The notes: generated by a model from the letters alone, not told the origin. Positions 3,300-57,740 are shown, numbered from the stretch's first letter. The stretch: DNA of 64,000 nt from Eubacteriales bacterium (GCA_045588675.1 JAZNER010000046.1:108550-172549); one strand, 5' to 3'. A program made the numbers and translations.

Positions 3300-4091
3300 T
3301 TAACCTTTGCAGAGCTCATCAAGGCTTCCAAAACGGTATCCCTGATTTTTCAATTCAACAATTATATCCTTTAAAATTGCCGCGTTAGTTGCAGATGTCG
3401 GGTGCAGAAGCATTACCTCACCATTGTGAATATTGTCAAGGATTTTCTTTTTTGCATTATCAAGCGACATTTGCCTGTTGTTGTCCCAATCAGCGTACGC
3501 AAAGCTCCAAAATACAGTTTTATAACCTAATTCATTTATATACTGCATTGATTGCTCGTCAAATTTGCCTTCCGGAGGCCTGTAATATTTGGATAAGCTC
3601 TTCCCTGTTTTTTCTATGCAGGTGTTTTCAAGCCGTGCAAGCTCGGAAGAAATTTCATCCTTTGTTTTGCCGATCATTGATTTGTGTGAATAGGTGTGAT
3701 TGCATACCAGATGCCCCTCGTTGAACATTCGTTCAATCAAATCGGTGTTTTTTTCAATCAGATTTCCAAGAACAAAGAATGCACCTACAACCCCCTCGCT
3801 TTTTAACACATCTAATGTTTTTTCAACATTGCCGTTTTCGTAGCCCGCATCAAAGGTTAAGTATATAACCTTTTCCTGAGAATCGTTGCCGTGTTTTTTA
3901 TCTATATAGTATCCATTATAATTTTCAATGAATGAAATTGAAGCATCGGCACGAGGCTGTAAATGGTCCTTTCTATGAACACAATACCAGTTATAATACT
4001 TCGTATCTGCAAAGATGTTCAGGCAGTTAGCCGATAGAATTAAAACTACAAGCGAAACTAATAAAAACCTTATAATGACTGATTTTTTCAT
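3300..4091 (-). CDS. pdaA: delta-lactam-biosynthetic de-N-acetylase-like polysaccharide deacetylase (sporulation PdaA-like)
   Basis: 263 aa with signal peptide. YLTFDAGYENG, GAFFVLGN, CNHTYSH and RPPEG are colinear with Bacillus PdaA as I recall it. RBS aaagga. Confidence 0.75.
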   Translation of the reverse strand: MKKSVIIRFLLVSLVVLILSANCLNIFADTKYYNWYCVHRKDHLQPRADASISFIENYNGYYIDKKHGNDSQEKVIYLTFDAGYENGNVEKTLDVLKSEGVVGAFFVLGNLIEKNTDLIERMFNEGHLVCNHTYSHKSMIGKTKDEISSELARLENTCIEKTGKSLSKYYRPPEGKFDEQSMQYINELGYKTVFWSFAYADWDNNRQMSLDNAKKKILDNIHNGEVMLLHPTSATNAAILKDIIVELKNQGYRFGSLDELCKG

Positions 4092-5707: not shown

Positions 5708-8431
5708 ATGGCAAAGCAGAGCAAGCAAGAAGAAAGCAAAGAACTGAAGTCTATTCTTGCTAAATTGAAAAAATCATATGATGAAGAGTCAAAAGTTGAT
5801 CTTGACAGTGCACAATCTGACTCCAAAATCGAAGAGGATAAAGAACTAAACGATATTTTAGGAAAATTGTTTAGCTCAAGCCAGAATATTGAGGGCGAGG
5901 CTGCTGATAATGAAGTAGTCGTTGAAGAAGCAGTTGAACAAGTTGATATATCTGATGAAGAGGCTTCAAAGGAAAATGAAGCGAAGGAGCTCCTTGCAAG
6001 CTTGTTTGAGGAAAATCCGGAGCAACAGGTTGAAAATGTTTTACAAGCTATGTTTCCTGCAACAAGTGTATCCGAGAACGTTGAGGATGAAGAAGACTTA
6101 AATGTTGACGAGGATATTGCATTAGATTATAACGACGAAATGCCGGAAGAAGCAACTGAAGAAACAGTTGAAGAAACAATTGAGGCAACAATTGAAGAAA
6201 CAATTGAAGAAACAATTGAAGAAACAATTGAAGAAGAAATTGAAGAAGAAATTGAAGAAGAAATTGAAGAAGAAATTGAAGAAACGATTGAAGAAACAGA
6301 TGATGAAGACTTTGCCGTAGAGGACGAGGAGTATGATACTTCCCTTCCGCAAGAGGCTATTCAAGGCAAAATTTTAAGTGCTGAGCATTATATAGATGAC
6401 CCGCTACAAGAAAGATTGCCCGAATTTGATGTGATTGAAGGAGCTTTTGAAGATAATTCACAAAAGGTTATTGCCAATAATTCCGCAAAACACAGCGAAA
6501 CAAAAGAGCACAAAGCATCAAGTCTTGACAACTCTGATATATCGTTATTATTGAAATTTGGATATGACAATGAGGTTAAATCCAAGATTGGCGAGGATGA
6601 GACACATAAGGCTATCCTTGAAGCAGACAAAGAGTTTATCCCCGAACCGCATAAAATTCTTTACGGATTTTGTGATAAGGAATTTTCTGACAAGTCGGAA
6701 ATTCGCAAAATTAAAACTAAATACAAGTCTGAAAAAAACGGCTTGATTTTCAATTTAGTCGCTGTTTCGTTTATTGCCGCACTTATTTTTATGCTTGACC
6801 TGTTTTTCGAGTTTTTCTCTGACCGTTCAAGCTATTTGTTGGTGTTGTCCTTCGAATTGGTGCTTGTTGCGGTTATTGCCTTGATACTAAGAAAAAGACT
6901 TATTTCGGGTTTTTGGGGAGTTTTACGATTTGAAGGTAATATATATTCTGTATTAGTATTCTTGTTGTTTTCATATACGCTTTATGATATTGTAACCGCA
7001 ATACTGTATCTTGTAAATATAAATTCAATTAATATTTCCGACTTGATGCTGTTTGGATTTTCTATAGCATTATATGCAGTCTTAACTGTTATTTCAGACC
7101 TTACAAATTGCTTGCGTGAGGCAAATACATTTGCCATTATTTCTGCTCCTCAGGGTATATATACAGCCGAAGAAAACAAGGAAGCGCAAAGCAGTATAGT
7201 GACTGGCTCGAGATTAAATTATTCAATTAAAGGCGAAAAATCCTATGCTATACATAAAGCCTCAATGATTAGCGGATATTTCAAGAAAATGTCGGGCACA
7301 GTAAATGCAGGCGTCAATTTGATTTATATTTATGGCATTGTGCCGATAGCTTCTCTGATTGTAGGTTGTGCTATTGCAATTTTCGGCGAGAGTGTTATGC
7401 GCGGTGTATCATCAATGATGATGACATCACTTATGTGCATACCGCTGTTTTATGTTTGTATTCCTACCTTGACCGAATACGTAGTTTCAACAAATCTGAA
7501 GAAGAAAAAAACAGCATTTATCGGCACAGCCCCGATTGCGGAATACGCCAAATCAGAATTAGTTTATTTTTCTGATGTTGATGCGATAGATATTATTTCA
7601 TGTACTGAAATTCACCCTACAAAGAGTGAGAATAGCAAGAAGATGCTTTCCTTGGCTCATTCGGTTTTTGCCTCATTGGGTGGACCCTTGGGCAACGCAA
7701 CCGCACAGTACAGGGATCTTGATAATTCAGCAGATGAAGAGGCGAATGACATTATTATAAATTCAATATCCGATAACGGAATTGATATTTACTTTAATTC
7801 GTCAATAAATATTCTTATTGGTGACAAGCAATATATGCAGGCGCATAATATTAAAGTGAAAACCGATCCCAATTTAACAACTGCTACAAAGGGTTATGAC
7901 AGAGCGGTTATTTATATGTCTTTTGACGGTGTTCCAAAGCTTGGATTTATTATTACAAGCAGGATAAAGCCGGCGTTTGCAGATATGGTATCAAAGCTTG
8001 ATGCGGAAGGGATTAAGGTAATAGTCAGATCATACGAGCCTCAAATCAACGACCTTTACTTTGAACAAAATAAGCCAGAGCATATGCCGTCGGTCAGCGT
8101 TTATAAATCGGGTGAATATCAATCAACTCGTGTAAGCTCGATTTGTAATGGAGTTGTAGCTTCTGAAACAGATAGTCTGTCAGTTGCCGATTTGATATTT
8201 GTTGGCAGAAAAACTGCTGAAAAAAGAAAACAAAACCAGCGGATTTTATTTGTACTCGTGCTTGCTGGATTTTTCGTGTCAGCATTGCTTGGCGCGCTAT
8301 TGTCAATAACAGATGCCATATTTATTTTAAGTGGATTAAAAACACACATAACCCTGCTCTTCAATTTTTTGATGGTTTTGTCACTTATTCCGGGTGTGGT
8401 CAGTTTATTGAAGCTAAAAAAACAAATTTAA
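5708..8431 (+). CDS. large membrane protein: acidic repeat N-terminus, multi-TM core, HAD/P-type-ATPase-like C-terminal region (degenerate)
   Basis: 907 aa with a strong RBS (aaggagg). About 330 acidic residues including EETI/EEEI repeats, then many hydrophobic helices. GFIITSRIKPAFADMVSKLDAEGIKVIV resembles the P-type ATPase hinge, but no DKTGT or TGD motif is present. Confidence 0.6.
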   Translation: MAKQSKQEESKELKSILAKLKKSYDEESKVDLDSAQSDSKIEEDKELNDILGKLFSSSQNIEGEAADNEVVVEEAVEQVDISDEEASKENEAKELLASLFEENPEQQVENVLQAMFPATSVSENVEDEEDLNVDEDIALDYNDEMPEEATEETVEETIEATIEETIEETIEETIEEEIEEEIEEEIEEEIEETIEETDDEDFAVEDEEYDTSLPQEAIQGKILSAEHYIDDPLQERLPEFDVIEGAFEDNSQKVIANNSAKHSETKEHKASSLDNSDISLLLKFGYDNEVKSKIGEDETHKAILEADKEFIPEPHKILYGFCDKEFSDKSEIRKIKTKYKSEKNGLIFNLVAVSFIAALIFMLDLFFEFFSDRSSYLLVLSFELVLVAVIALILRKRLISGFWGVLRFEGNIYSVLVFLLFSYTLYDIVTAILYLVNINSINISDLMLFGFSIALYAVLTVISDLTNCLREANTFAIISAPQGIYTAEENKEAQSSIVTGSRLNYSIKGEKSYAIHKASMISGYFKKMSGTVNAGVNLIYIYGIVPIASLIVGCAIAIFGESVMRGVSSMMMTSLMCIPLFYVCIPTLTEYVVSTNLKKKKTAFIGTAPIAEYAKSELVYFSDVDAIDIISCTEIHPTKSENSKKMLSLAHSVFASLGGPLGNATAQYRDLDNSADEEANDIIINSISDNGIDIYFNSSINILIGDKQYMQAHNIKVKTDPNLTTATKGYDRAVIYMSFDGVPKLGFIITSRIKPAFADMVSKLDAEGIKVIVRSYEPQINDLYFEQNKPEHMPSVSVYKSGEYQSTRVSSICNGVVASETDSLSVADLIFVGRKTAEKRKQNQRILFVLVLAGFFVSALLGALLSITDAIFILSGLKTHITLLFNFLMVLSLIPGVVSLLKLKKQI
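6146..6297 (+). repeat. in-frame 12-bp tandem repeat (gaagaaacaatt / gaagaagaaatt), about 12-13 copies
   Basis: Direct reading: the repeat encodes EETV-EETI-EATI-(EETI)x4-(EEEI)x4-EETI-EET inside the 907-aa ORF. Confidence 0.95.
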
Positions 8432-33789: not shown

Positions 33790-34138
33790 AAAAAACTTGC
33801 TCACCTGTGCTGCGGGTGCTAAAGGACAGTAATAAAGCCGATATGGATTAAACATCTGTATCGGCTCTTTTCTATTACACCGCTAATAGTGGTGAGTAAG
33901 TGCGCTTTTTAAGTTTTTAGTGATATGCTGTCTATGACAGCGTGATATTACTCGCCCTGCTCGTAGTGATATTGAAACCTTGCGGTTTCAGTGGTATTCT
34001 ATTCGCACGACAACTCGCGTAGCGAATATCACTCGGCGTAAGCTGAATATAACTGCGAAGCAATATAACTCGCCAGAGGCGAATAGAGTTGGCGTTGTGT
34101 CCTTTGGAACACAACGCCTGAGGGTGAGCAAGTTTTTT
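33790..34138. repeat. structured intergenic element A (inverted-repeat bracketed, 9-mer/mini-hairpin array)
   Basis: A 16-nt perfect inverted repeat (IR): 33790-33805 / 34123-34138. AGTGRTATK at 33919, 33941, 33965 and 33990. AATATMACT at 34025, 34046 and 34062. Spacers form small hairpins. Terminal hairpin at 34091-34118. Confidence 0.85.
33836..33871 (+). terminator. intrinsic terminator after the acyl-CoA ligase gene
   Basis: Stem agccgata / tatcggct followed by cttttc. Confidence 0.7.
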
Positions 34139-34355
34139 ACTATAGTGTTTCGCTGGATCTTTTAGTTGTTAATATTGCAAGTTGCATTATAAAAAAAATT
34201 ATTCAAATTATTAATATTTTTTATGTTTTTATGCACTTTTTTATAAAAATTTAATGTTTGCACTTGTATTTTGGAAGAATTTGTGTTATCATTATATGAA
34301 TAGATATTTAGGGCTATAATTTAAAGGTTAGCAATTTGAAAGGAATATTCAATTT

Positions 34356-36299
34356 ATGAAAGACGGATATATCAAGGTTGCATCAGCGTGTCCTGAAATT
34401 AAAATGGCAGATGTTAAATTCAATACAGACGCTTGTATTTCCTTGGCAAATCGCGCAAACGAGTTGGGCGTTAAGCTTCTGGTTTTCCCTGAGCTTGTTC
34501 TGACAGGCTATTCCTGCGGAGATATGTTTTCGTCAGAAAGCCTGCTTAAAGGTGCTCTTACGGGTCTTAAAAATTATGTTTATGCTACTGCTATGCTTGA
34601 TATGGTTTCGATAATTGGATTGCCAATTGAGCACGGTGACAAGGTCTATAACTGCGCGGCTGTCGTATCGGGCGGTCAGCTTCTCGGAATAGTACCAAAG
34701 AAAAATCTTCCTAATCAGGGCGAATATTATGAGCTTCGCAATTTTATTCCTGCGCCAAAGGACAATTTTGCTTATAGCTTTGACGACAGTATCGTTATGT
34801 TTGGCACAAATCAGTTCTTCGTTTGCAGACAAATGCCAAGCTTTAGGATAGGTGTTGAAATTTGTGAGGATCTGTGGTCTTCTGACGCTCCATCTTCAAT
34901 TCTTGCTTCTGCTGGAGCTACGGTTATTGCAAACCCCTCGGCTTCAAGTGAGATTATCGGCAAAGAGGATTACAGAAAAATGTTAATCCGCACGCAATCA
35001 TTAAAGACTATTTCGGGGTATGTTTATACAAGCTCGGGACTTGGAGAATCAACTGCAAATTCGGTTCTTTCGGGACATTGTATAATCGCAGAAATGGGTA
35101 CTATCATCGGTGAGAGAAAGCCTTTTGATTTTTCTGCAGATGAGCTTACGATTACCGAGCTTGATTTGCAGAAAATCGTCCACGCTCGCCGCACAAACAA
35201 TACATTTACAAAAAACACAAACGGAATTGAATTTTGCGAGATTGAATTTGATTTAAGTCTTGAAGATACAATTATTACAAGAAAAATTGACCCATCTCCC
35301 TTTGTTCCAACAGACAAAAAGGAACTTGCAGACAGATGTGAAAAAATCCTTAATATACAAGCATTAGGTCTTGCAGAGAGAGTTAAGGCGTCGTATTCAG
35401 GAAAGCTTGTTGTTGGTATTTCGGGCGGACTTGATTCTTGCCTTGCGCTTCTTGTAATGGTGCGAGCTGCCGATTATCTCAATATTCCAAGAAAAGATAT
35501 AATTGCAGTTACAATGCCCTGCTTTGGAACAACTTCGAGGACAAAAAACAATGCAACTGTTCTTTGTGAAAAGCTTGGTGTTGATTTCCGTTGTGTTAAC
35601 ATTTTTGATGCGGTAAGACAGCATTTTGCTGATATTGGTCACGACCCTGAAAACTATAATGTTGTATATGAGAATGCTCAGGCGAGAGAAAGAACACAGG
35701 TCCTTATGGATATAGCCAACGCCGAGAGCGGTCTTGTTGTCGGAACTGGTGACCTTTCCGAGCTTGCACTTGGTTGGGCGACCTATAACGGCGACCATAT
35801 GTCAATGTACGGCGTTAATGCTTCAGTTCCCAAAACGCTTATCAGACATATTGTAAGCTATTGCGCTGATTTGGAAAAATCAAAGGGTGAGGAGCTTTTG
35901 GCAGATGCTATTTATGACATTCTCAATACTCCTGTTTCACCCGAATTACTCCCTGCCACAGAGGGCGGTGAGATTTCTCAAAAAACAGAGGATTTGGTTG
36001 GTCCTTATGAGCTTCACGATTTCTACCTTTTCAATTTTGTAAAGCACGGATTTACTCCTAAAAAGCTTTTCAGAATGGCAAAAATAGCCTTTAACGGCAT
36101 ATATGATGAAAAAACACTCTTAAAGTGGCTCGAAGTATTTGTAAAGAGGTTTTTTGCTCAACAGTTTAAGCGCTCGTGTCTGCCCGACAGTCCGCGCGTT
36201 GGAACGGTAGCGCTTTCCCCGAATTATTTTAAGATGGTTTCGGATATGTCATCAAACTTGTGGCGAGCGGAAATCGAAGAGCTTAAAGAATTAATTTAA
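34356..36299 (+). CDS. nadE: glutamine-dependent NAD+ synthetase
   Basis: 647 aa. N-terminal CN-hydrolase (FPELVLTGY, EICEDLW) plus a C-terminal NAD synthetase PP-loop (GISGGLDS). Confidence 0.9.
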   Translation: MKDGYIKVASACPEIKMADVKFNTDACISLANRANELGVKLLVFPELVLTGYSCGDMFSSESLLKGALTGLKNYVYATAMLDMVSIIGLPIEHGDKVYNCAAVVSGGQLLGIVPKKNLPNQGEYYELRNFIPAPKDNFAYSFDDSIVMFGTNQFFVCRQMPSFRIGVEICEDLWSSDAPSSILASAGATVIANPSASSEIIGKEDYRKMLIRTQSLKTISGYVYTSSGLGESTANSVLSGHCIIAEMGTIIGERKPFDFSADELTITELDLQKIVHARRTNNTFTKNTNGIEFCEIEFDLSLEDTIITRKIDPSPFVPTDKKELADRCEKILNIQALGLAERVKASYSGKLVVGISGGLDSCLALLVMVRAADYLNIPRKDIIAVTMPCFGTTSRTKNNATVLCEKLGVDFRCVNIFDAVRQHFADIGHDPENYNVVYENAQARERTQVLMDIANAESGLVVGTGDLSELALGWATYNGDHMSMYGVNASVPKTLIRHIVSYCADLEKSKGEELLADAIYDILNTPVSPELLPATEGGEISQKTEDLVGPYELHDFYLFNFVKHGFTPKKLFRMAKIAFNGIYDEKTLLKWLEVFVKRFFAQQFKRSCLPDSPRVGTVALSPNYFKMVSDMSSNLWRAEIEELKELI

Positions 36300-36304
36300 A
36301 ACCG

Positions 36305-36335
36305 AAAAACCGTTGCAGAAATGCAACGGTTTTTT
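36305..36335. terminator. bidirectional intrinsic terminator
   Basis: Stem aaccgttgca / tgcaacggtt with loop gaaa and A/T flanks. Confidence 0.85.
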
Positions 36336-36338
36336 ATA

Positions 36339-36794
36339 TCAAATATCTTTTTCGCTAATATTGAAGATTTGCTTCTTCTTTTTCTTTGCATACTTATAGG
36401 TCTGGTAAGCTCCGCCAAAATCGTGAGTTATATATGCTATAACACAGTCTGCCTTCTCGACCATCCACCTGTTACGGTATGAAATCGCAAATTTAAGCGG
36501 TACTTTTTCGAGTTCAGGATAGATAATGTCATCATACAGATTTTTCTCGTATTCTAAATGATTTTTTTGATAATCAACTGTTATATACGGTGTAATGAAA
36601 ACTAATTTCGTGTTTGGGTGTGTTTCCTGATATTTCTTTCCGCATCTCCGAGCAAACGCGTCAAAAGAGCCGTAACCGCCCAAATAAAGCTCGGCGTGAT
36701 CATCTCCGATAATTTCCGTCAAAATAGATATGATTTTTTGCGCGTCCTCTCTTGTTTCAATGTATTTTGAATGTCCGCAAAATGTAACTATCAT
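36339..36794 (-). CDS. DUF1273 / YpsA-like SLOG-family protein
   Basis: MIVTFCGHSK..LYLGGYGSFD..ISYRNRWMVEKAD. Start at ATG 36794; the 10 upstream codons of the ORF-track call run through a terminator hairpin. Confidence 0.7.
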   Translation of the reverse strand: MIVTFCGHSKYIETREDAQKIISILTEIIGDDHAELYLGGYGSFDAFARRCGKKYQETHPNTKLVFITPYITVDYQKNHLEYEKNLYDDIIYPELEKVPLKFAISYRNRWMVEKADCVIAYITHDFGGAYQTYKYAKKKKKQIFNISEKDI

Positions 36795-36817
36795 AAAACT
36801 ACCCCGTAAATAAAAAA

Positions 36818-36964
36818 AGTGCACCCCCGAAGGAATGCACTGAAAAAATGCTTCCCTCGATTGTTGCTACACAAACTTTCTCTGATATGGGATGAGAAAA
36901 GAGAGAAAACACTTTTTACCAAAGTATTTTCCCATATCAGAAAAAAATATGCAGTTTGTGTAGC
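36818..36964 (-). promoter_or_regulatory. structured 5' leader: 99-nt hairpin plus intrinsic terminator upstream of the YpsA-like gene (or an independent sRNA)
   Basis: Minus strand: gctacacaaact (36964-36953) pairs with agtttgtgtagc (36877-36866). Inner stem tctgatatggga / tcccatatcaga. Then the hairpin agtgcattcc-ttcg-ggggtgcact (36841-36818) plus a T7 run. Confidence 0.6.
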
Positions 36965-36970
36965 GTGTAT

Positions 36971-36999
36971 ATTATACCACATTTTACGAGATTTGTCAA
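36971..36999 (-). promoter_or_regulatory. sigma-A promoter (TTGACA-17-TATAAT, TG extended -10), minus strand
   Basis: Reverse complement reads ttgaca(36999-36994)-aatctcgtaaaatgtgg-tataat(36976-36971). Confidence 0.85.
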
Positions 37000-37078
37000 T
37001 ACAGAATAGACAGACTGTAATATTTGAATAATCCAAAACAAAAAAGAGCTATCTTAAGATAACTCTTTTGATTGATTT

Positions 37079-37353
37079 TGTGCTCATAGTACCAAAATAC
37101 AACTCGTATATTTAGTGAAGTTTTGGCTACGCCAAAGTGATGTTATGCTTCGCATAGTGATGTTGCTCCCTACGGTCGCAGTGAAGTGATATGTTCCTAA
37201 TTTCGTGCCAAAGGCACACTTCACGCGCGAATCGCACTCCACTTCCGAAGGAAACATCACGCTCCGTTTGCGGAACGCATCGTTGAAAAAAGCACTTGCG
37301 CAAGCAAGTGCTTTTTTCTGTGCTCATAGTACAAAAATGCAACTTTATGTATT
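37079..37353. repeat. structured intergenic element B flanked by imperfect direct repeats 240 nt apart
   Basis: tgtgctcatagtac.aaaat.caact at 37079 and 37319. AGTGAWGT at 37114, 37136, 37156 and 37180. Reverse complements at 37218, 37236 and 37254. Mini-hairpins lie between them. Terminator at 37286-37317. Confidence 0.85.
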
Positions 37354-37466
37354 TCTACAATCATAACAGCACTAATAAGTGTTGTGTTTAGAAGAAAATA
37401 CATTTCTTACTGTGTAATATTAACCGTAATTTTTTCATTATCCACAGTAGAACAACCTATATCATT

Positions 37467-37991
37467 TTAATAAATATCAAGTGCGTACCATTCACCATCA
37501 TAATTTAAGCAAAAAATAAAATCGGTTCTTTCCTCACCATCCACCTCCGAATTAACACTAACAATACAATATTCATCAATCAACGCCAAATCCTGAGGTG
37601 TAGCGCCATAAGATTCCATACCCGCTATATAGCCATTAAGCAATTCCTCACATGTATAAGACCATATTCCAATATCAAGCATTGCTGAAACATCTTTTTT
37701 TTCACTGCTGATTATAATACACTCGCAAATATCATCTTCTGTAATATTATCTTTCATGTCATTAACAATTTGTTCTTTATTAAAATCTTCCCCAAACATT
37801 GCTTTTAAAGCAAAATCAGGAAAACAATTGACCATCTTTTCTGGATTTGCCGTAAAAATCGCCACTACTAAATTTTCCGCTACTTTTTCCGGAGTGGATG
37901 TGACGCCACTCTTTCCGCAAGCAACAAGGGAAACGAGCATAGCCATTATAATAATGAACACAAAAACCTTAGATAAACTATTTCTTTTCAT
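37467..37991 (-). CDS. lipoprotein, unknown function
   Basis: 174 aa. Lipobox LVSLVACG. RBS ggaggaag. Confidence 0.7.
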   Translation of the reverse strand: MKRNSLSKVFVFIIIMAMLVSLVACGKSGVTSTPEKVAENLVVAIFTANPEKMVNCFPDFALKAMFGEDFNKEQIVNDMKDNITEDDICECIIISSEKKDVSAMLDIGIWSYTCEELLNGYIAGMESYGATPQDLALIDEYCIVSVNSEVDGEERTDFIFCLNYDGEWYALDIY

Positions 37992-38048
37992 TTTTTTCTT
38001 CCTCCAAAAATTAAAATTTTAATATCGCTACTCAACTATAATATTTTA

Positions 38049-38510
38049 TCAAAAGTCAAATATCGCTGACGGTATATCTAACCAAATGAAAATGATTGAC
38101 AATAATACATAAACCGCATTTACAATTAATACTCTTCTCTTTTCTTGCTTATCTGCCAATTTATCTGCGCTTATAACTAATGAAACTATTATGGCAGCTA
38201 TTCCAGGAATTAATGTCAACGAGGCCTTATAATCTCTATGAATTCCGAAAACTTTAGTATTATCTAGCAAATTATCATAGTAAATATATTCGCTCTGCAT
38301 AGAAATCCTAATTATTAAAGAAATAAAAGCACTGATAACACTAGCAATATAAGATTTTTTCAAACAAGGTTTGTACGCCTTATTTGTATCTGATATAGCA
38401 AGCTCCTCATTATCAATTTCTTCAACACCTTCTCTTCCAATTTGGCATCCACACTTTTCGCAAAACATTGCTTCATCGTTAATTTCTTTTCCACATTTTG
38501 AACAAAACAT
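38049..38510 (-). CDS. zinc-ribbon domain membrane protein
   Basis: N-terminal CSKCG..CEKCG zinc ribbon followed by 3 TM helices. RBS aggaga. Confidence 0.7.
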   Translation of the reverse strand: MFCSKCGKEINDEAMFCEKCGCQIGREGVEEIDNEELAISDTNKAYKPCLKKSYIASVISAFISLIIRISMQSEYIYYDNLLDNTKVFGIHRDYKASLTLIPGIAAIIVSLVISADKLADKQEKRRVLIVNAVYVLLSIIFIWLDIPSAIFDF

Positions 38511-38534
38511 ATCACTTTCTCCTATTTAATTTAT

Positions 38535-38579
38535 TTGTAACAAATTGTTACAAATAATATTGTAACACAATGTTACAAT
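38535..38579. promoter_or_regulatory. two palindromic operator-like sites TTGTAACA-N3-TGTTACAA
   Basis: ttgtaacaaattgttacaa (38535-38553) and attgtaacacaatgttacaat (38559-38579), in the divergent intergenic region next to the XRE gene. Confidence 0.7.
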
Positions 38580-38619
38580 AAAGTCAAGAGGTTTACATAA
38601 TTTTATTAGGAGGAATTTT

Positions 38620-38841
38620 ATGAAAGCAAACCAAGGGCTTCTCGGATTAAGAATTGTCAGGACGAAAAAACAATACAGCCAATTAAAAGTAGCCATGGAT
38701 TTGAATATAAGCCGAGAAGCACTTTCTTATTACGAAACCGGAAAAAGAAATCCCGACCTGCAAATGCTTCGACAATTATCAAAATATTTTAATGTCTCTA
38801 TTGATTTTTTGGTAAACGGGAAAGAATTTCAAGAAAAATAA
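38620..38841 (+). CDS. XRE-family HTH protein (73 aa)
   Basis: LRIVRTKKQYSQLKVAMDLNISREALSYYETGKRNP. RBS aggagga. Confidence 0.8.
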   Translation: MKANQGLLGLRIVRTKKQYSQLKVAMDLNISREALSYYETGKRNPDLQMLRQLSKYFNVSIDFLVNGKEFQEK

Positions 38842-38879
38842 GAGCCAAATATACTGCTACAAGGAGTTAAGTAATTCAC

Positions 38880-39151
38880 AACGACTATGCGACTGCTACG
38901 GGACTGTGCCTGCGATAGTTTGCAATAAAATCCTATGCAGTCATACTTACTTCCTAAAATATAGTCGTTTTGAAACAAATCACGCCATAGGCGTGTATGG
39001 AATCCGCAACATGTTGCGGTATGGAATCATCACGAGATGATGTATAGAATCAATCCGAAGGTAGATATACGCTGACGCGTGATGCCATACGCCTGCGACA
39101 ATTCCATACTCACTTACGCGAGATTACATGCCAATCCTTCGGATTGAATAG
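38880..39151. repeat. structured intergenic element C (two domains; 9-mer/mini-hairpin array)
   Basis: Domain 1 is closed by aacgactat (38880) / atagtcgtt (38961). Domain 2 has GTATRGAAT at 38995, 39019 and 39042, and reverse complements at 39082, 39100 and 39123. Hairpins cacgcc/ggcgtg, ccgcaa/ttgcgg, atcatc/gatgat, caatcc/ggattg. Confidence 0.85.
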
Positions 39152-39181
39152 AAAAAAGACCGTCCGAAAACGGTCTTTTTT
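39152..39181. terminator. bidirectional intrinsic terminator (ends the tRNA transcript on the minus strand)
   Basis: aaaaaagaccgt-ccgaaa-acggtctttttt. Confidence 0.9.
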
Positions 39182-39183
39182 CT

Positions 39184-39258
39184 TGGCACCCCCAACGGGA
39201 ATCGAACCCATAACTAACCCTTAGGAGGGGCTTGTTATATCCATTTAACTATGGAGGC
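39184..39258 (-). tRNA. tRNA-Arg (anticodon CCU), CCA encoded
   Basis: Manual cloverleaf, 75 nt. Acceptor GCCUCCA/UGGGGGU, D stem GUUA/UAAC, anticodon stem AGCCC/GGGUU with loop CU-CCU-AA, T arm AUGGG-UUCGAUU-CCCGU, discriminator G, 3' CCA. Confidence 0.9.
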
Positions 39259-57269: not shown

Positions 57270-57297
57270 AATTTTACATATTTTGCAATACTTTTCA
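57270..57297 (-). promoter_or_regulatory. minus-strand promoter, third copy of the shared promoter sequence
   Basis: ttgaaa(57297-57292)-16-taaaat(57275-57270). ttttacatattttgcaatacttttcaa is near-identical to 54951-54978. Confidence 0.7.
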
Positions 57298-57365
57298 AGA
57301 ACTATCCGCAGTTTTTGTCATATTCGCTTTTGACATCTTTTACTAAAATTTAACATCTTTCGCAA

Positions 57366-57394
57366 TTGACATACAATGGGGTTTATATTATAAT
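57366..57394 (+). promoter_or_regulatory. sigma-A promoter (TTGACA-17-TATAAT)
   Basis: ttgaca at 57366-57371 and tataat at 57389-57394. Confidence 0.8.
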
Positions 57395-57431: not shown

Positions 57432-57740
57432 ATGAAAAAATGTCCAATATGTCAACAGACATTTACACAATATCAATTACTGAAAAAAAGCTGCTTAAAA
57501 TCAGTGGGAAAACTCTTAGAAACTCATTTTATGGACGGCAAGGGTGTTATCAGATGTCCACACTGTAACGCACGGTTGATAAAAAAACGCTCTTTTTGGT
57601 TTATCGTTGCGTTAATTCCCTTTTGTGTATCTGCAGTATGGTATTCCATTACACATCAATATGATTTCCTTATGTATCTTTCTATTGTTTTATTTATGAT
57701 TATCTATGCAAGTTTACCATATGTTCCTTATGACAAATAA
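57432..57740 (+). CDS. zinc-ribbon membrane protein (102 aa)
   Basis: CPICQ...CPHCN followed by 2 TM helices. RBS ggagga. Confidence 0.65.
   Translation: MKKCPICQQTFTQYQLLKKSCLKSVGKLLETHFMDGKGVIRCPHCNARLIKKRSFWFIVALIPFCVSAVWYSITHQYDFLMYLSIVLFMIIYASLPYVPYDK

Follow-up and report, generated by a model that had tools for sequence, protein, structure and literature searches.

The 64,000-nt stretch of a Eubacteriales bacterium analyzed here (the window; GCA_045588675.1 JAZNER010000046.1:108550-172549) carries three intergenic elements, A, B (37114-37318) and C (38980-39183). Their features are listed below in window coordinates, with no strand assigned except where one is given.

33790-33805: 5' arm, AAAAAACTTGCTCACC, of a perfect 16-nt outer inverted repeat that encloses A; partner 34123-34138
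33834-34118: element A, full extent common to family members at non-orthologous loci, by homology (85% identity to L268, 88% to L324, 80% to L283)
33836-33866, + strand: 13-bp hairpin with a T-run after it, resembling a terminator and belonging to the A-subfamily unit (terminator scan; kept in L268)
33919-33998: left arm of A, four AGTGATATT-type motifs (direct 9-mers of AGTGATAT(T) type) at 33919, 33941, 33965 and 33990, with hairpins 33927-33941 and 33974-33989 between (sequence repeats)
33998-34006: centre arm of the long-range stem of A, TCTATTCGC, pairing with 34079-34087, GCGAATAGA (inverted-repeat pair)
34016-34090: right arm of A, the part modelled by Rfam: hairpin CGCGTAGCG, then AATATCACT, AATATAACT twice and AATAGAGTT; the inverted motifs (AATATCACT or AATATAACT) start at 34025, 34046 and 34062, and the hairpins between them are CGGCgtaaGCTG, GCGAAGC and CGCCagaGGCG
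34091-34118: 10-bp GC-rich hairpin closing A, terminator-type (inverted repeat; covaries in relatives, alignments A1 and A3)
34123-34138: 3' arm, GGTGAGCAAGTTTTTT, of the outer inverted repeat; pairs with 33790-33805
37069-37104, + strand: direct repeat 1 flanking B, 36 nt, 83% identical to 37309-37344; comes after a bidirectional terminator at 37040-37069
37114-37188: left arm of B, AGTGAAGTT, AGTGATGTT twice and AGTGAAGTG with hairpins between (repeats and Gut-1 match); the direct motifs (AGTGAAGTT or AGTGATGTT) start at 37114, 37136, 37156 and 37180
37205-37284: right arm of B, hairpins with CACTTCAC (37217), ACTTCC, AACATCAC (37253) and a degenerate CATCGTT (repeats and fold)
37285-37318: bidirectional intrinsic terminator closing B, a 15-bp perfect stem with A-run and T-run; also the terminator of the gene at 37467-37991 (- strand)
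37309-37344, + strand: direct repeat 2 flanking B; partner of 37069-37104
38980-39050: left arm of C, a hairpin, then GTATGGAAT twice and GTATAGAAT with hairpins between (repeats, descriptor); the direct motifs (GTATGGAAT or GTATAGAAT) start at 38995, 39019 and 39042
39050-39061: centre arm of C, TCAATCCGAAGG, forming a perfect 12-nt long-range stem with 39136-39147 (inverted-repeat pair; topology as in the A family)
39082-39147: right arm of C, ATGCCATAC, ATTCCATAC and ATTACATGC with hairpins (repeats, fold); the ATTCCATAC-type inverted motifs start at 39082, 39101 and 39122
39150-39183: bidirectional intrinsic terminator common to C and the tRNA gene (inverted-repeat pair)
39184-39258, - strand: tRNA-Arg(CCT); the order tRNA, terminator, array is typical of the family context

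An earlier reading of the sequence alone (the sequence-only reading) had described a shared architecture of three to four direct motifs with hairpins, followed by the reverse-complement motif with further hairpins; this is present in A, B and C, where the hairpins are small and GC-rich, and the start-to-start distances agree with its motif spacing of 16-25 nt. A descriptor consisting of an 8-mer with at most one mismatch, at least three direct copies and at least two inverted copies downstream returned four multi-seed clusters in the window, where Markov shuffles predict 0.13, and three of the four are A, B and C. The elements are far more stable than shuffled controls on both strands (folding z-scores of -8.0/-7.3 for A, -4.5/-5.2 for B and -4.5/-6.0 for C). 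The description of the spacers as hairpins holds on average, with a mean best stem of 3.9 bp versus 2.5 bp in shuffled spacers and about nine of 20 spacers individually significant, although a few, such as 33950-33964, are not hairpins. An A-run/hairpin/T-run terminator was said to close every element. It closes B and C, but the end of A has no such local terminator and carries the GC-rich hairpin at 34091-34118 instead. The 16-nt inverted repeat around A does have the form A-run/stem/T-run and looks like a bidirectional terminator stem with A in its loop; it falls outside the family homology, and outer stems do not characterize the family. In C, the minimum-free-energy structure of the tRNA strand contains the long-range stem, with the right-arm hairpins inside it; a local hairpin at 39131-39145, at the end of the right arm, competes with this stem.

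CRISPR arrays have repeats of at least 23 nt, unique non-palindromic spacers and a single orientation. That candidate was rejected for the present elements, whose repeats are 7-12 nt, whose spacers are hairpins and whose second half is inverted; a single Rfam CRISPR-repeat match reached 14 bits.

The sequence-only reading had found no existing class that fits, but the architecture is that of the Gut-1 RNA motif (Rfam RF01706), an orphan motif from gut Firmicutes metagenomes in which conserved GUGAAAU/GUGAUAU linkers stand between three hairpins that vary in sequence and covary (Weinberg et al., 2010, Genome Biol 11:R31, PMC2864571). The window copies score under the 50-bit gathering score of the Gut-1 covariance model, with left arms matching on the + strand and right arms on the - strand: the right arm of A at 34021-34091 (42.1 bits, E 6e-6), its left arm weakly at 33906-33977 (23.8 bits), and the left and right arms of B at 37095-37168 (34.4 bits) and 37213-37285 (27.3 bits). 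C has no match to this model. The closest homologue of A, L268, passes the gathering score with 52.9 bits, as do nine further members of alignment A1 (55.7-69.5 bits). Three hairpins with GUGAAAU-like linkers are seen in A by covariance-model alignment and in both A and B by reading the sequence; C has a Gut-1-like layout but another linker. The motifs had been called locus-specific, and they do differ between elements (linker cores GTGATAT in A, GTGATGT and GTGAAGT in B, ATGGAAT in C), but they are not unrelated, since all lie one or two mismatches from the Gut-1 linker GTGAAAT. The same architecture recurs with differing motifs in C within the window and in a TGTATATCATCA subfamily at L304, L320 and L346.

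A family profile of 43 elements, threshold-passing Gut-1 members included, matches A at 153.6 bits (nhmmer E 1e-46) and B marginally at 37112-37265 (E 1.4e-4); C is undetected by nhmmer with this profile. A thus belongs to a sequence-conserved family of more than 120 metagenome loci, contrary to the claim that this is not a dispersed family with conserved sequence. Across those loci, the Rfam motif is one arm of a two-armed element of about 200 nt. One of the exemplars of Weinberg et al., BAAZ01025322, is the same sequence as L210 in our alignment, and their flanked alignment has the same two-armed layout and tRNA context. A, B and C are genuine, diverged copies of one superfamily of non-coding intergenic elements that is widespread in gut bacteria and of which Gut-1, as already listed in Rfam, makes up one half. 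The Rfam entry models 77 nt, one arm only, and the original paper gives the motif one sentence. Neither describes the arm in inverted orientation, the long-range stem from centre to end, the bidirectional terminator at the flank (which in Rfam's orientation precedes the motif), the proximity to tRNA genes, the neighboring PF05635 gene or the related subfamilies whose linkers differ (C and the TGTATATCATCA type).

Selection on a single-stranded fold, as the sequence-only reading had suggested, is borne out for the hairpins of the spacers and for a stem that links the centre with the end next to the terminator, though not for pairing between left and right motifs. In the family alignment, the hairpins and long-range stem have 96.9% of cells paired, compared with 79.9% in shuffles and 30-48% in slid controls, and 181 double-sided changes compared with 46. 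Such changes occur in 20 of 31 pairs, and the covariation score is 0.40 against 0.107 for shuffles. In the long-range stem, 99.6% of cells are paired, and one pair occurs as AU 27 times, UA 10 times and CG six times; C has the same centre-to-end topology in unrelated sequence. Covariation therefore strongly supports local hairpins plus a long-range stem between the centre and the terminator-side end. The linkers, which have no support as paired positions in this alignment, are its most conserved columns and nearly invariant across the 43 diverse copies.

Arrays typically sit immediately beyond a terminator, that of a tRNA operon or of a gene, and the order seen at C, with the array past the last tRNA gene, was found in about 17 of 50 loci scanned. 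The sequence-only reading had named a lack of the pattern in orthologous intergenic regions of relatives as evidence against it, and there the elements are absent. Relatives whose NadE is 80%, 74% and 73% identical lack element A in the orthologous region; in L081, the nadE terminator directly precedes tRNA-Arg(CCT), so the 2.85 kb with B and C is an insertion. The three elements are thus insertions, not conserved cis-regulators of neighboring genes, and the elements are lineage-specific and dispensable. Homologues of A at L268, L324 and L283 have no AMP-binding or NadE genes nearby. Upstream of A, B and C no convincing promoter was found, and no replication or partition gene adjoins them.

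Among about 42 unique loci whose flank is long enough, 13 (roughly a third) have a gene of the PF05635 family at the left end of the array. This gene has its own promoter abutting the last linker, the last motif meeting the -35 box (TTTACA-17-TATATT). PF05635 ORFs were absent from 1.5 Mb of unrelated Clostridia loci and from the window. Arrays of the GTGATATT type go with one PF05635 subtype and TGTATATCATCA arrays with another, a link that spans two subtypes only and could stem from co-inheritance of a linked cassette; L304 has both array/subtype pairs side by side. A subtype-2 gene 89% identical to that of L304 was found without any array.

The best guess at a mechanism, which we hold with less than even confidence, is that the hairpins present the recurring linkers as a putative multivalent protein-binding platform. 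A complete element of about 200 nt comprises a left arm of three to four units, each a conserved 7-12-nt linker plus a variable GC-rich mini-hairpin, then a centre segment and a right arm of reverse-complement linkers with hairpins of their own. The terminator-side end, with a bidirectional intrinsic terminator beside it, can form a local hairpin or pair with the centre, the latter closing the right arm into a domain. Transcription from either side, or another single-stranded state of the DNA, would let the spacers snap into hairpins, exposing the identical linkers as a regular platform for an oligomeric nucleic-acid-binding protein. The best candidate binder is the Avd-like four-helix-bundle protein of PF05635 encoded beside many copies. 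Avd is a pentameric nucleic-acid-binding protein. With no PF05635 gene nearby, A, B and C may be "solo" arrays acting in trans or may be decaying. Expression, protein binding and cellular role are all inferred. The missing promoters before A, B and C and the absence of a PF05635 gene from the window speak against the platform model. So do the stems, in which G·U is in no excess over A·C, unlike typical RNA-only selection. Moreover, a one-strand RNA platform leaves the reverse-complement second arm unexplained unless both strands are used.

As an alternative to the platform, the arrays may be REP/BIME-like palindromes without a protein partner, whose hairpins block 3' exonucleases and back up termination both ways, making a bidirectional transcript-end insulator; this has a minority but appreciable chance of being right. 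Arrays always adjoin a bidirectional terminator, between genes or after tRNA operons, and weak terminator scores are given to some units made of a hairpin plus ATATTTTT. The two strands fold equally well, and 98% of the pairs in the hairpin stems are Watson-Crick, G·T and A·C being equally rare (nine each in about 955 pairs), as expected if both strands matter. The local hairpins show no G·U bias between strands (9 vs 9); in the long-range stem, G·U pairs favor the strand opposite to Rfam's orientation by 10 to 0, and minimum free energy slightly prefers Rfam's strand. Like the REP/BIME elements of enterobacteria, the arrays are groups of small extragenic palindromes that alternate in orientation and lie where transcription units have their 3' ends. 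Unit number varies (tandem copies or variable units at L252, L278, L293, L218 and L255), as does presence between strains, the arrays being absent at orthologous sites. The sequence shared within a genome that marks REP/MITE families is lacking, given the marginal B match and the undetected C. BIMEs keep their palindromes constant and let the linkers diverge, whereas the arrays keep the linkers and change the palindromes, with compensation; near 14 annotated arrays, no RAYT-type transposase was found. Passive palindromes also leave unexplained why linkers are the most conserved part, why they are identical within an element and why the centre-to-end stem covaries, and a strong terminator is present already.

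A more specific version of the platform model, speculative and on the whole unlikely, would make array and PF05635 gene an unrecognized cassette colonizing the far side of tRNA/stable-RNA gene terminators. An Avd-like oligomer would specifically bind the linkers between hairpins, as ssRNA or ssDNA of either strand, subtype and linker would co-evolve, and solo arrays of the A, B and C type would be non-autonomous derivatives. PF05635 is homologous to Avd of diversity-generating retroelements (PMC10053308). As with Avd and with the PF05635-bearing intervening sequences of 23S rRNA, a four-helix-bundle gene goes together with a structured, palindromic non-coding stretch lodged within or next to the gene of a stable RNA (PMC10053308). 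In contrast to the intervening sequences, the array lies outside the RNA gene, past its terminator; in contrast to the retroelements, no reverse transcriptase or template/variable repeat pair was found near annotated array loci; and, unlike in PF05635-bearing systems, only a fraction of arrays are associated with the gene. If true, the cassette would give a joint function to two orphans, the large PF05635 family and the Gut-1 motif, and link them to the Avd-RNA complexes of those retroelements and to the intervening sequences.

The fold originally proposed, in which left-arm motifs pair with right-arm motifs so that 9-bp helices, in RNA or ssDNA, stack into a long rod with hairpins at its sides and a succession of four-way junctions, is fairly improbable. 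Each subfamily (A, B, C and the TGTATATCATCA type) does carry the matching reverse complement in its distal arm, complementarity falls from 97% at the innermost pair to 77% at the outermost, and the + strand folds of B and C use some left-right pairs. The compensatory change between halves that had been offered as evidence of pairing finds no support within the family: 87.5% of left-motif/right-motif cells are complementary versus 87.0% in shuffles, with 8 double-sided changes versus 4.5, and deviations are mostly uncompensated mismatches. Conservation alone explains the complementarity. RNAalifold favors the centre-to-end stem, which is incompatible with a rod. Single arms stand alone in L293 and L278, and the one exemplar of Weinberg et al. 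inspected for this, BAAY01013587, has no inverted half within its aligned flank.

Improbable, too, is non-autonomous mobile DNA (MITE/foldback-like), with the arms as two transposon ends, each bearing several subterminal sites to which a transposase or recombinase specific to the family would bind, like the ends of Tn7, Mu and CACTA. The change from direct motif copies to inverted ones between the arms, subfamily-specific motifs with several subfamilies in one genome, lineage-specific insertion and the same element at non-orthologous loci would all suit it, as would A lying inside an apparently pre-existing terminator stem, B between 36-nt direct repeats and the preference for sites downstream of tRNA genes. 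Against this, the 14 annotated loci have no recurrent transposase or integrase gene nearby, inspection of the element ends by eye showed neither target-site duplications nor conserved terminal inverted repeats, strong hairpin covariation is not predicted, and the copies are old and diverged rather than near-identical. Integron attC sites are similar as imperfect palindromes downstream of genes with structure conserved above sequence, but their defining features (57-141 nt, two pairs of integrase-binding boxes, one-strand specificity and a nearby integron integrase) were not seen at the arrays.

An operator/iteron array of duplex-DNA sites for a regulator of an adjacent promoter, such as that of the PF05635 gene, whose -35 box the last motif abuts, is very improbable: the solo copies A, B and C have no adjacent promoter, compensatory changes in the spacer hairpins go unexplained and the spacing lacks helix phasing. 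Linker spacing in the family varies from 16 to 26 nt with hairpin length while the spacers remain hairpins, which fits a folded form better than helical phasing on duplex DNA.

Elements A (33834-34118), B (37114-37318) and C (38980-39183) each combine a left arm of direct motif copies (linkers) with a right arm of reverse-complement motifs, the spacers being mostly GC-rich hairpins of 4-6 bp with loops of 3-4 nt. The motifs listed here were located by sequence reading together with a repeat finder.

33919, 33941, 33965, 33990: left-arm motifs of A, AGTGATAT(T)-type 9-mers
34025, 34046, 34062: right-arm motifs of A, AATATCACT or AATATAACT
34091-34118: 10-bp hairpin at the end of A
33790-33805 / 34123-34138: perfect 16-nt inverted repeat (A-run/stem/T-run) around all of A
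37114, 37136, 37156, 37180: left-arm motifs of B, AGTGAAGTT or AGTGATGTT
37217 and 37253: right-arm motifs of B, CACTTCAC and AACATCAC, respectively
37285-37318: perfect bidirectional terminator at the end of B
38995, 39019, 39042: left-arm motifs of C, GTATGGAAT or GTATAGAAT
39082, 39101, 39122: right-arm motifs of C, ATTCCATAC-type
39150-39183: perfect bidirectional terminator at the end of C

The arrays that a sequence-only reading had proposed are real and well above chance: a simple descriptor found four multi-seed clusters in 64 kb, three of them A, B and C, compared with 0.13 in Markov shuffles. Their mean spacer stem is 3.9 bp (2.5 bp when shuffled), and on both strands they fold far better than dinucleotide-shuffled controls (z = -8.0/-7.3 for A, -4.5/-5.2 for B and -4.5/-6.0 for C). 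The proposal that a terminator closes each element holds for B and C, whereas A ends in the 10-bp hairpin inside its 16-nt inverted repeat. This outer stem falls outside the homology to family members and looks like a terminator stem with element A in its loop; outer closing stems were rejected as a family trait (mean 7.5 nt versus 7.1 in the null). No convincing promoter was found upstream of A, B or C, and at L224 and L251 the promoter-like sites directed into the arrays are only weak. B is bracketed by a 36-nt direct repeat of 83% identity (37069-37104 and 37309-37344), each copy immediately 3' of a bidirectional terminator, which may be the footprint of duplication or insertion of the element or its terminator. 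The descriptor also picked 57276-57370, which is not a hairpin array; here the AT-rich promoter region of a gene starting at 57432 contains TTGACAT three times at intervals of about 20 nt.

The identity of the elements is settled: they are arrays of the Gut-1 type (Rfam RF01706), with A as a member and B and C as variants. At Rfam gathering thresholds the sole match is tRNA-Arg(CCT), 39184-39258. Gut-1, for which the cut-off is 50 bits, surfaces only in E-value mode, with four matches in the region.

34021-34091, minus strand: RF01706 match, 42.1 bits
37095-37168, plus strand: RF01706 match, 34.4 bits
37213-37285, minus strand: RF01706 match, 27.3 bits
33906-33977, plus strand: RF01706 match, 23.8 bits

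The initial view that no existing class fits is wrong. The model consensus, [GUGAAAU][hairpin] three times and then GUGAAAU, is exactly the unit of repeat plus variable hairpin seen in the window; since left arms match on the plus strand and right arms on the minus strand, each element consists of two Gut-1-like arrays in inverted orientation. Gut-1 was graded as certainly an RNA, was listed with 43 examples, all from the human gut, and received one sentence of text (Weinberg et al., 2010; PMC2864571). The flanked alignment of that study contains the full two-armed layout (e.g., BAAZ01000095) and, in BAAZ01025322, a copy that comes right behind a tRNA with its terminator, neither layout nor tRNA context being described in the paper's text (PMC2864571). 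In the literature searched, Gut-1 is mentioned by the 2010 paper alone and by no later one.

The family was surveyed with a motif-motif-centre pattern, GTGATATT-N(7-20)-GTGATATT-N(15-30)-GCGAATA, which replaced a pattern of three direct copies that had been swamped by ordinary tandem repeats in viral contigs. In metagenomes it returned at least 120 loci, mostly from human gut, and exact-sequence collapse left 97 distinct cores among the matches listed. Among four viral contigs returned, only one carried a true element (L096), located after a phage head-tail-connector-like gene. BLAST of A gave one match in a phage collection, MT835815, whose sequence is that of Weinberg's BAAZ01025322, and no match in a plasmid collection, and B-type and C-type patterns found only coding regions or unrelated iterons in viral contigs. 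One B-type false positive, at 3940-4060 of a phage contig (L336), comprises AAAAGTAACATCACCTAA-type iterons, direct and inverted, without spacer hairpins, and looks like a replication-origin iteron array.

Ten of 15 loci tested passed the Rfam Gut-1 threshold (52.9-69.5 bits), among them L268, the nearest homologue of A. A family profile built from 43 distinct elements detected A (E 1e-46) and B (E 1.4e-4) but not C. Within the family the sequence is conserved, contrary to the earlier impression. Given the profile match and the passing homologue, A is a bona fide member that has decayed slightly, with two right-arm motifs now reading AATATAACT. B is a distant relative, and C has architecture alone in common with the family. 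The core motifs of A, B and C are nevertheless related, each lying one to two mismatches from GTGAAAT. A further subfamily with the same layout repeats TGTATATCATCA (two copies in locus L304, and loci L320 and L346). An architecture common to different sequences, as first suggested from A, B and C, is therefore a superfamily property, and several subfamilies can coexist in one genome, the window being an example. Possible likenesses of the linker to DnaA boxes, parS half-sites, Rex/CRP half-sites, Chi sites and the anti-Shine-Dalgarno tail were dropped because the motif varies among the subfamilies of one genome.

On the alignment of family members (A1), RNAalifold predicted the spacer hairpins and an 11-bp long-range stem joining the centre TTATATTCGCC, just 3' of the last left motif, to the terminator-side end GGCGAATATAA, so that the right arm would be closed into a domain. 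On this predicted structure 96.9% of cells are paired (79.9% in shuffles; 30-48% in slid controls), with 181 double-sided changes versus 46, which upholds the proposed selection on structure for the hairpins and the long-range stem. At one pair of the long stem, 27 sequences have AU, 10 have UA and 6 have CG. Three segments of L330 have changed jointly (TATTCACC, CTCACC and GGTGAATA), such that the long stem and a competing local hairpin are both kept. C has a perfect 12-nt stem (39050-39061/39136-39147) around its right-arm hairpins, reproducing the A-family topology in unrelated sequence, and its 3' arm has an alternative in a local hairpin at 39131-39145; in B, sequence reading indicates a weaker equivalent (37191-37197/37272-37280). 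Pairing of left with right motifs, as originally envisaged, is not supported, and the rod fold built on it is less likely: such pairing stands at 87.5% versus 87.0% in shuffles, with 8 double-sided changes versus 4.5, and deviations are mostly uncompensated mismatches. Single arms also occur alone (L293 without the left, L278 without the right), and inner units are lost in L252 and L279.

A census of spacer-hairpin pairs, counted per sequence, gave 938 Watson-Crick, 9 G·T and 9 A·C. RNA-only selection typically gives far more G·U than A·C pairs; with G·T as rare as A·C, the two strands of the hairpins look equally constrained. On the window's plus strand, opposite to the Rfam annotation, 10 G·U and 0 A·C were counted in the long-range stem and end hairpin, and minimum free energy slightly favours the Rfam strand (-76.3 versus -73.1 kcal/mol), being lower there in 45 of 56 elements. 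The Rfam orientation places the terminator upstream of the motif; the opposite one places it at the 3' end, as the sequence-only reading had assumed. As these signals conflict, the G·U versus A·C asymmetry was rejected as a pointer to the transcribed strand, and the Rfam strand annotation of Gut-1 may be uncertain.

Synteny from the AMP-binding gene to nadE is retained in relatives whose NadE is 80%, 74% and 73% identical, with intergenic regions of 74, 204 and 176 nt, respectively, compared with 568 nt in the window. The pattern was not found in these orthologous regions of relatives, and no array occurred at 80 NadE-retrieved loci of species-representative genomes (1.35 Mb) or at nine closer metagenome loci. 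In the 80% relative, the closest one (nadE loci L081/L082), tRNA-Arg(CCT) lies directly 3' of the nadE terminator; hence window 36340-39183 is an insertion between nadE and the tRNA. This 2.85-kb block is a small island on the 3' side of the tRNA, without an integrase; besides B and C it carries four small genes (SLOG-like, putative lipoprotein, zinc-ribbon membrane protein and XRE regulator). Homology of A to L268, L283 and L324 covers 33834-34118, and these loci lack AMP-binding and NadE genes, so the A-type unit occupies non-orthologous sites. Tandem copies lie 313 nt apart in L218 and L255. Rather than regulators of nadE or its neighbours, A, B and C are accessory non-coding insertions. 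A MITE-like element is a less likely description; at 14 annotated loci no transposase or integrase recurred near the arrays, whose neighbours were mostly housekeeping genes.

At about 17 of 50 loci scanned, the last tRNA gene (variously Arg, Tyr, Met, Gly, Asn or His) and its bidirectional terminator are followed immediately by the array; at other loci the array lies 3' of a protein gene's terminator hairpin. C obeys the order of tRNA, terminator and array exactly, and B follows gene 37467-37991 and its terminator likewise. Between tRNA operons and arrays or PF05635 genes, L218 (3976-4210) and L255 (12890-13200, minus strand) carry units of about 130-200 nt with tRNA-like ends, ...CTCC(T/G)(A/C)CCA, tandemly duplicated in L255. 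These gave no ARAGORN call and, for L255, no Rfam family at gathering score; an unannotated stable-RNA gene and tRNA fragments are two possible readings.

Among about 42 unique loci with sufficient flanking sequence, 13 have a gene of 118-132 aa that abuts the array end distal to the tRNA, and the gene's own promoter, TTTACA-17-TATATT, touches the last motif. The product is a four-helix-bundle protein of PF05635 ("23S rRNA intervening sequence protein"), a family homologous to the accessory protein Avd of diversity-generating retroelements (PMC10053308); the surroundings of gene and array at 14 annotated loci showed no reverse transcriptase. A PF05635 profile search found 53 ORFs in array-selected loci, many being copies of the same locus; neither 1.5 Mb of unrelated Clostridia loci nor the window yielded any. 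Each TGTATATCATCA array of L304, L320 and L346 is followed at the same position by a clearly different PF05635 subtype. In L346 the full arrangement runs from a tRNA-like 3' end through terminator, array and promoter to the gene, and in L304 the two array types are adjacent, each paired with its own subtype. The pairing is facultative, since a subtype-2 gene with 89% identity to that of L304 is also found with no array. In L255 (12297-12900, minus strand) a third subtype comes after a stable-RNA-like unit, a terminator and, in place of a Gut-1-type array, a different palindrome, polypyrimidine/polypurine; PF05635 genes may generally lie behind a palindromic spacer after stable-RNA genes. A second TGTATATCATCA array of L304 (6646-6814, within 6088-6814) is followed by a terminator and tRNA-Asn, and from its far end, otherwise the PF05635 position, diverges a gene for a 173-aa XRE-type HTH protein; an XRE gene adjoins C in the window too.

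In the mechanism that we favour, hairpins of any sequence or length would fold away, and the identical linkers thus displayed would form a multivalent platform to which an oligomeric protein could bind. PF05635 is the obvious candidate for this binder, and either strand of the element would be usable. The display model fits the invariant, unpaired linkers, the unphased spacing, compensated hairpins and strand symmetry, and the way in which gene subtype goes with motif. It remains an inference: the subtype-motif pairs number only two, and the window has no PF05635 gene. Its main rival is a REP/BIME-like bidirectional transcript-end insulator, which would involve no dedicated protein; a duplex-DNA operator is less likely.

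The results suggest that the Rfam Gut-1 model covers only half of the real unit, and show that the two-armed unit is one of several architecture-sharing subfamilies with a fixed genomic grammar: stable-RNA gene, bidirectional terminator, array and then, often, a PF05635 gene. To our knowledge, this two-armed, terminator- and tRNA-associated, often PF05635-linked, multi-subfamily unit has not been described. Gut-1 has been an orphan motif since 2010, and the grammar brings an abundant gut RNA motif and a very large Avd-related protein family, both listed as "function unknown", into one testable pairing. For annotating the window, the practical message, that A, B and C are accessory insertions, is modest.

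Three other sites were noticed. The 5' leader (36795-36968, minus strand) of the SLOG/YpsA-like gene 36339-36824 follows a perfect sigma-70 promoter (TTGACA-17-TATAAT, 36999 to 36971) and contains a long hairpin and then a terminator-like hairpin (36841-36818) just 5' of the start codon. No Rfam family matches this candidate attenuator or riboswitch-like leader, whose RNA folds at -61.6 kcal/mol (z = -9.05). At 38535-38580, in the gap separating the divergent genes 38049-38510 (minus strand) and 38620-38841 (XRE, plus strand), four TTGTAACA/TGTTACAA half-sites form overlapping palindromes, an ordinary operator-like arrangement. Upstream of nadE in an unrelated Clostridia MAG (L058, 1940-2210), two GGGAGCTGTCGGAAACGGCAGCTCC copies surround GCCGAAAA/TTTTCGGC repeats, which constitute a different structured intergenic element.
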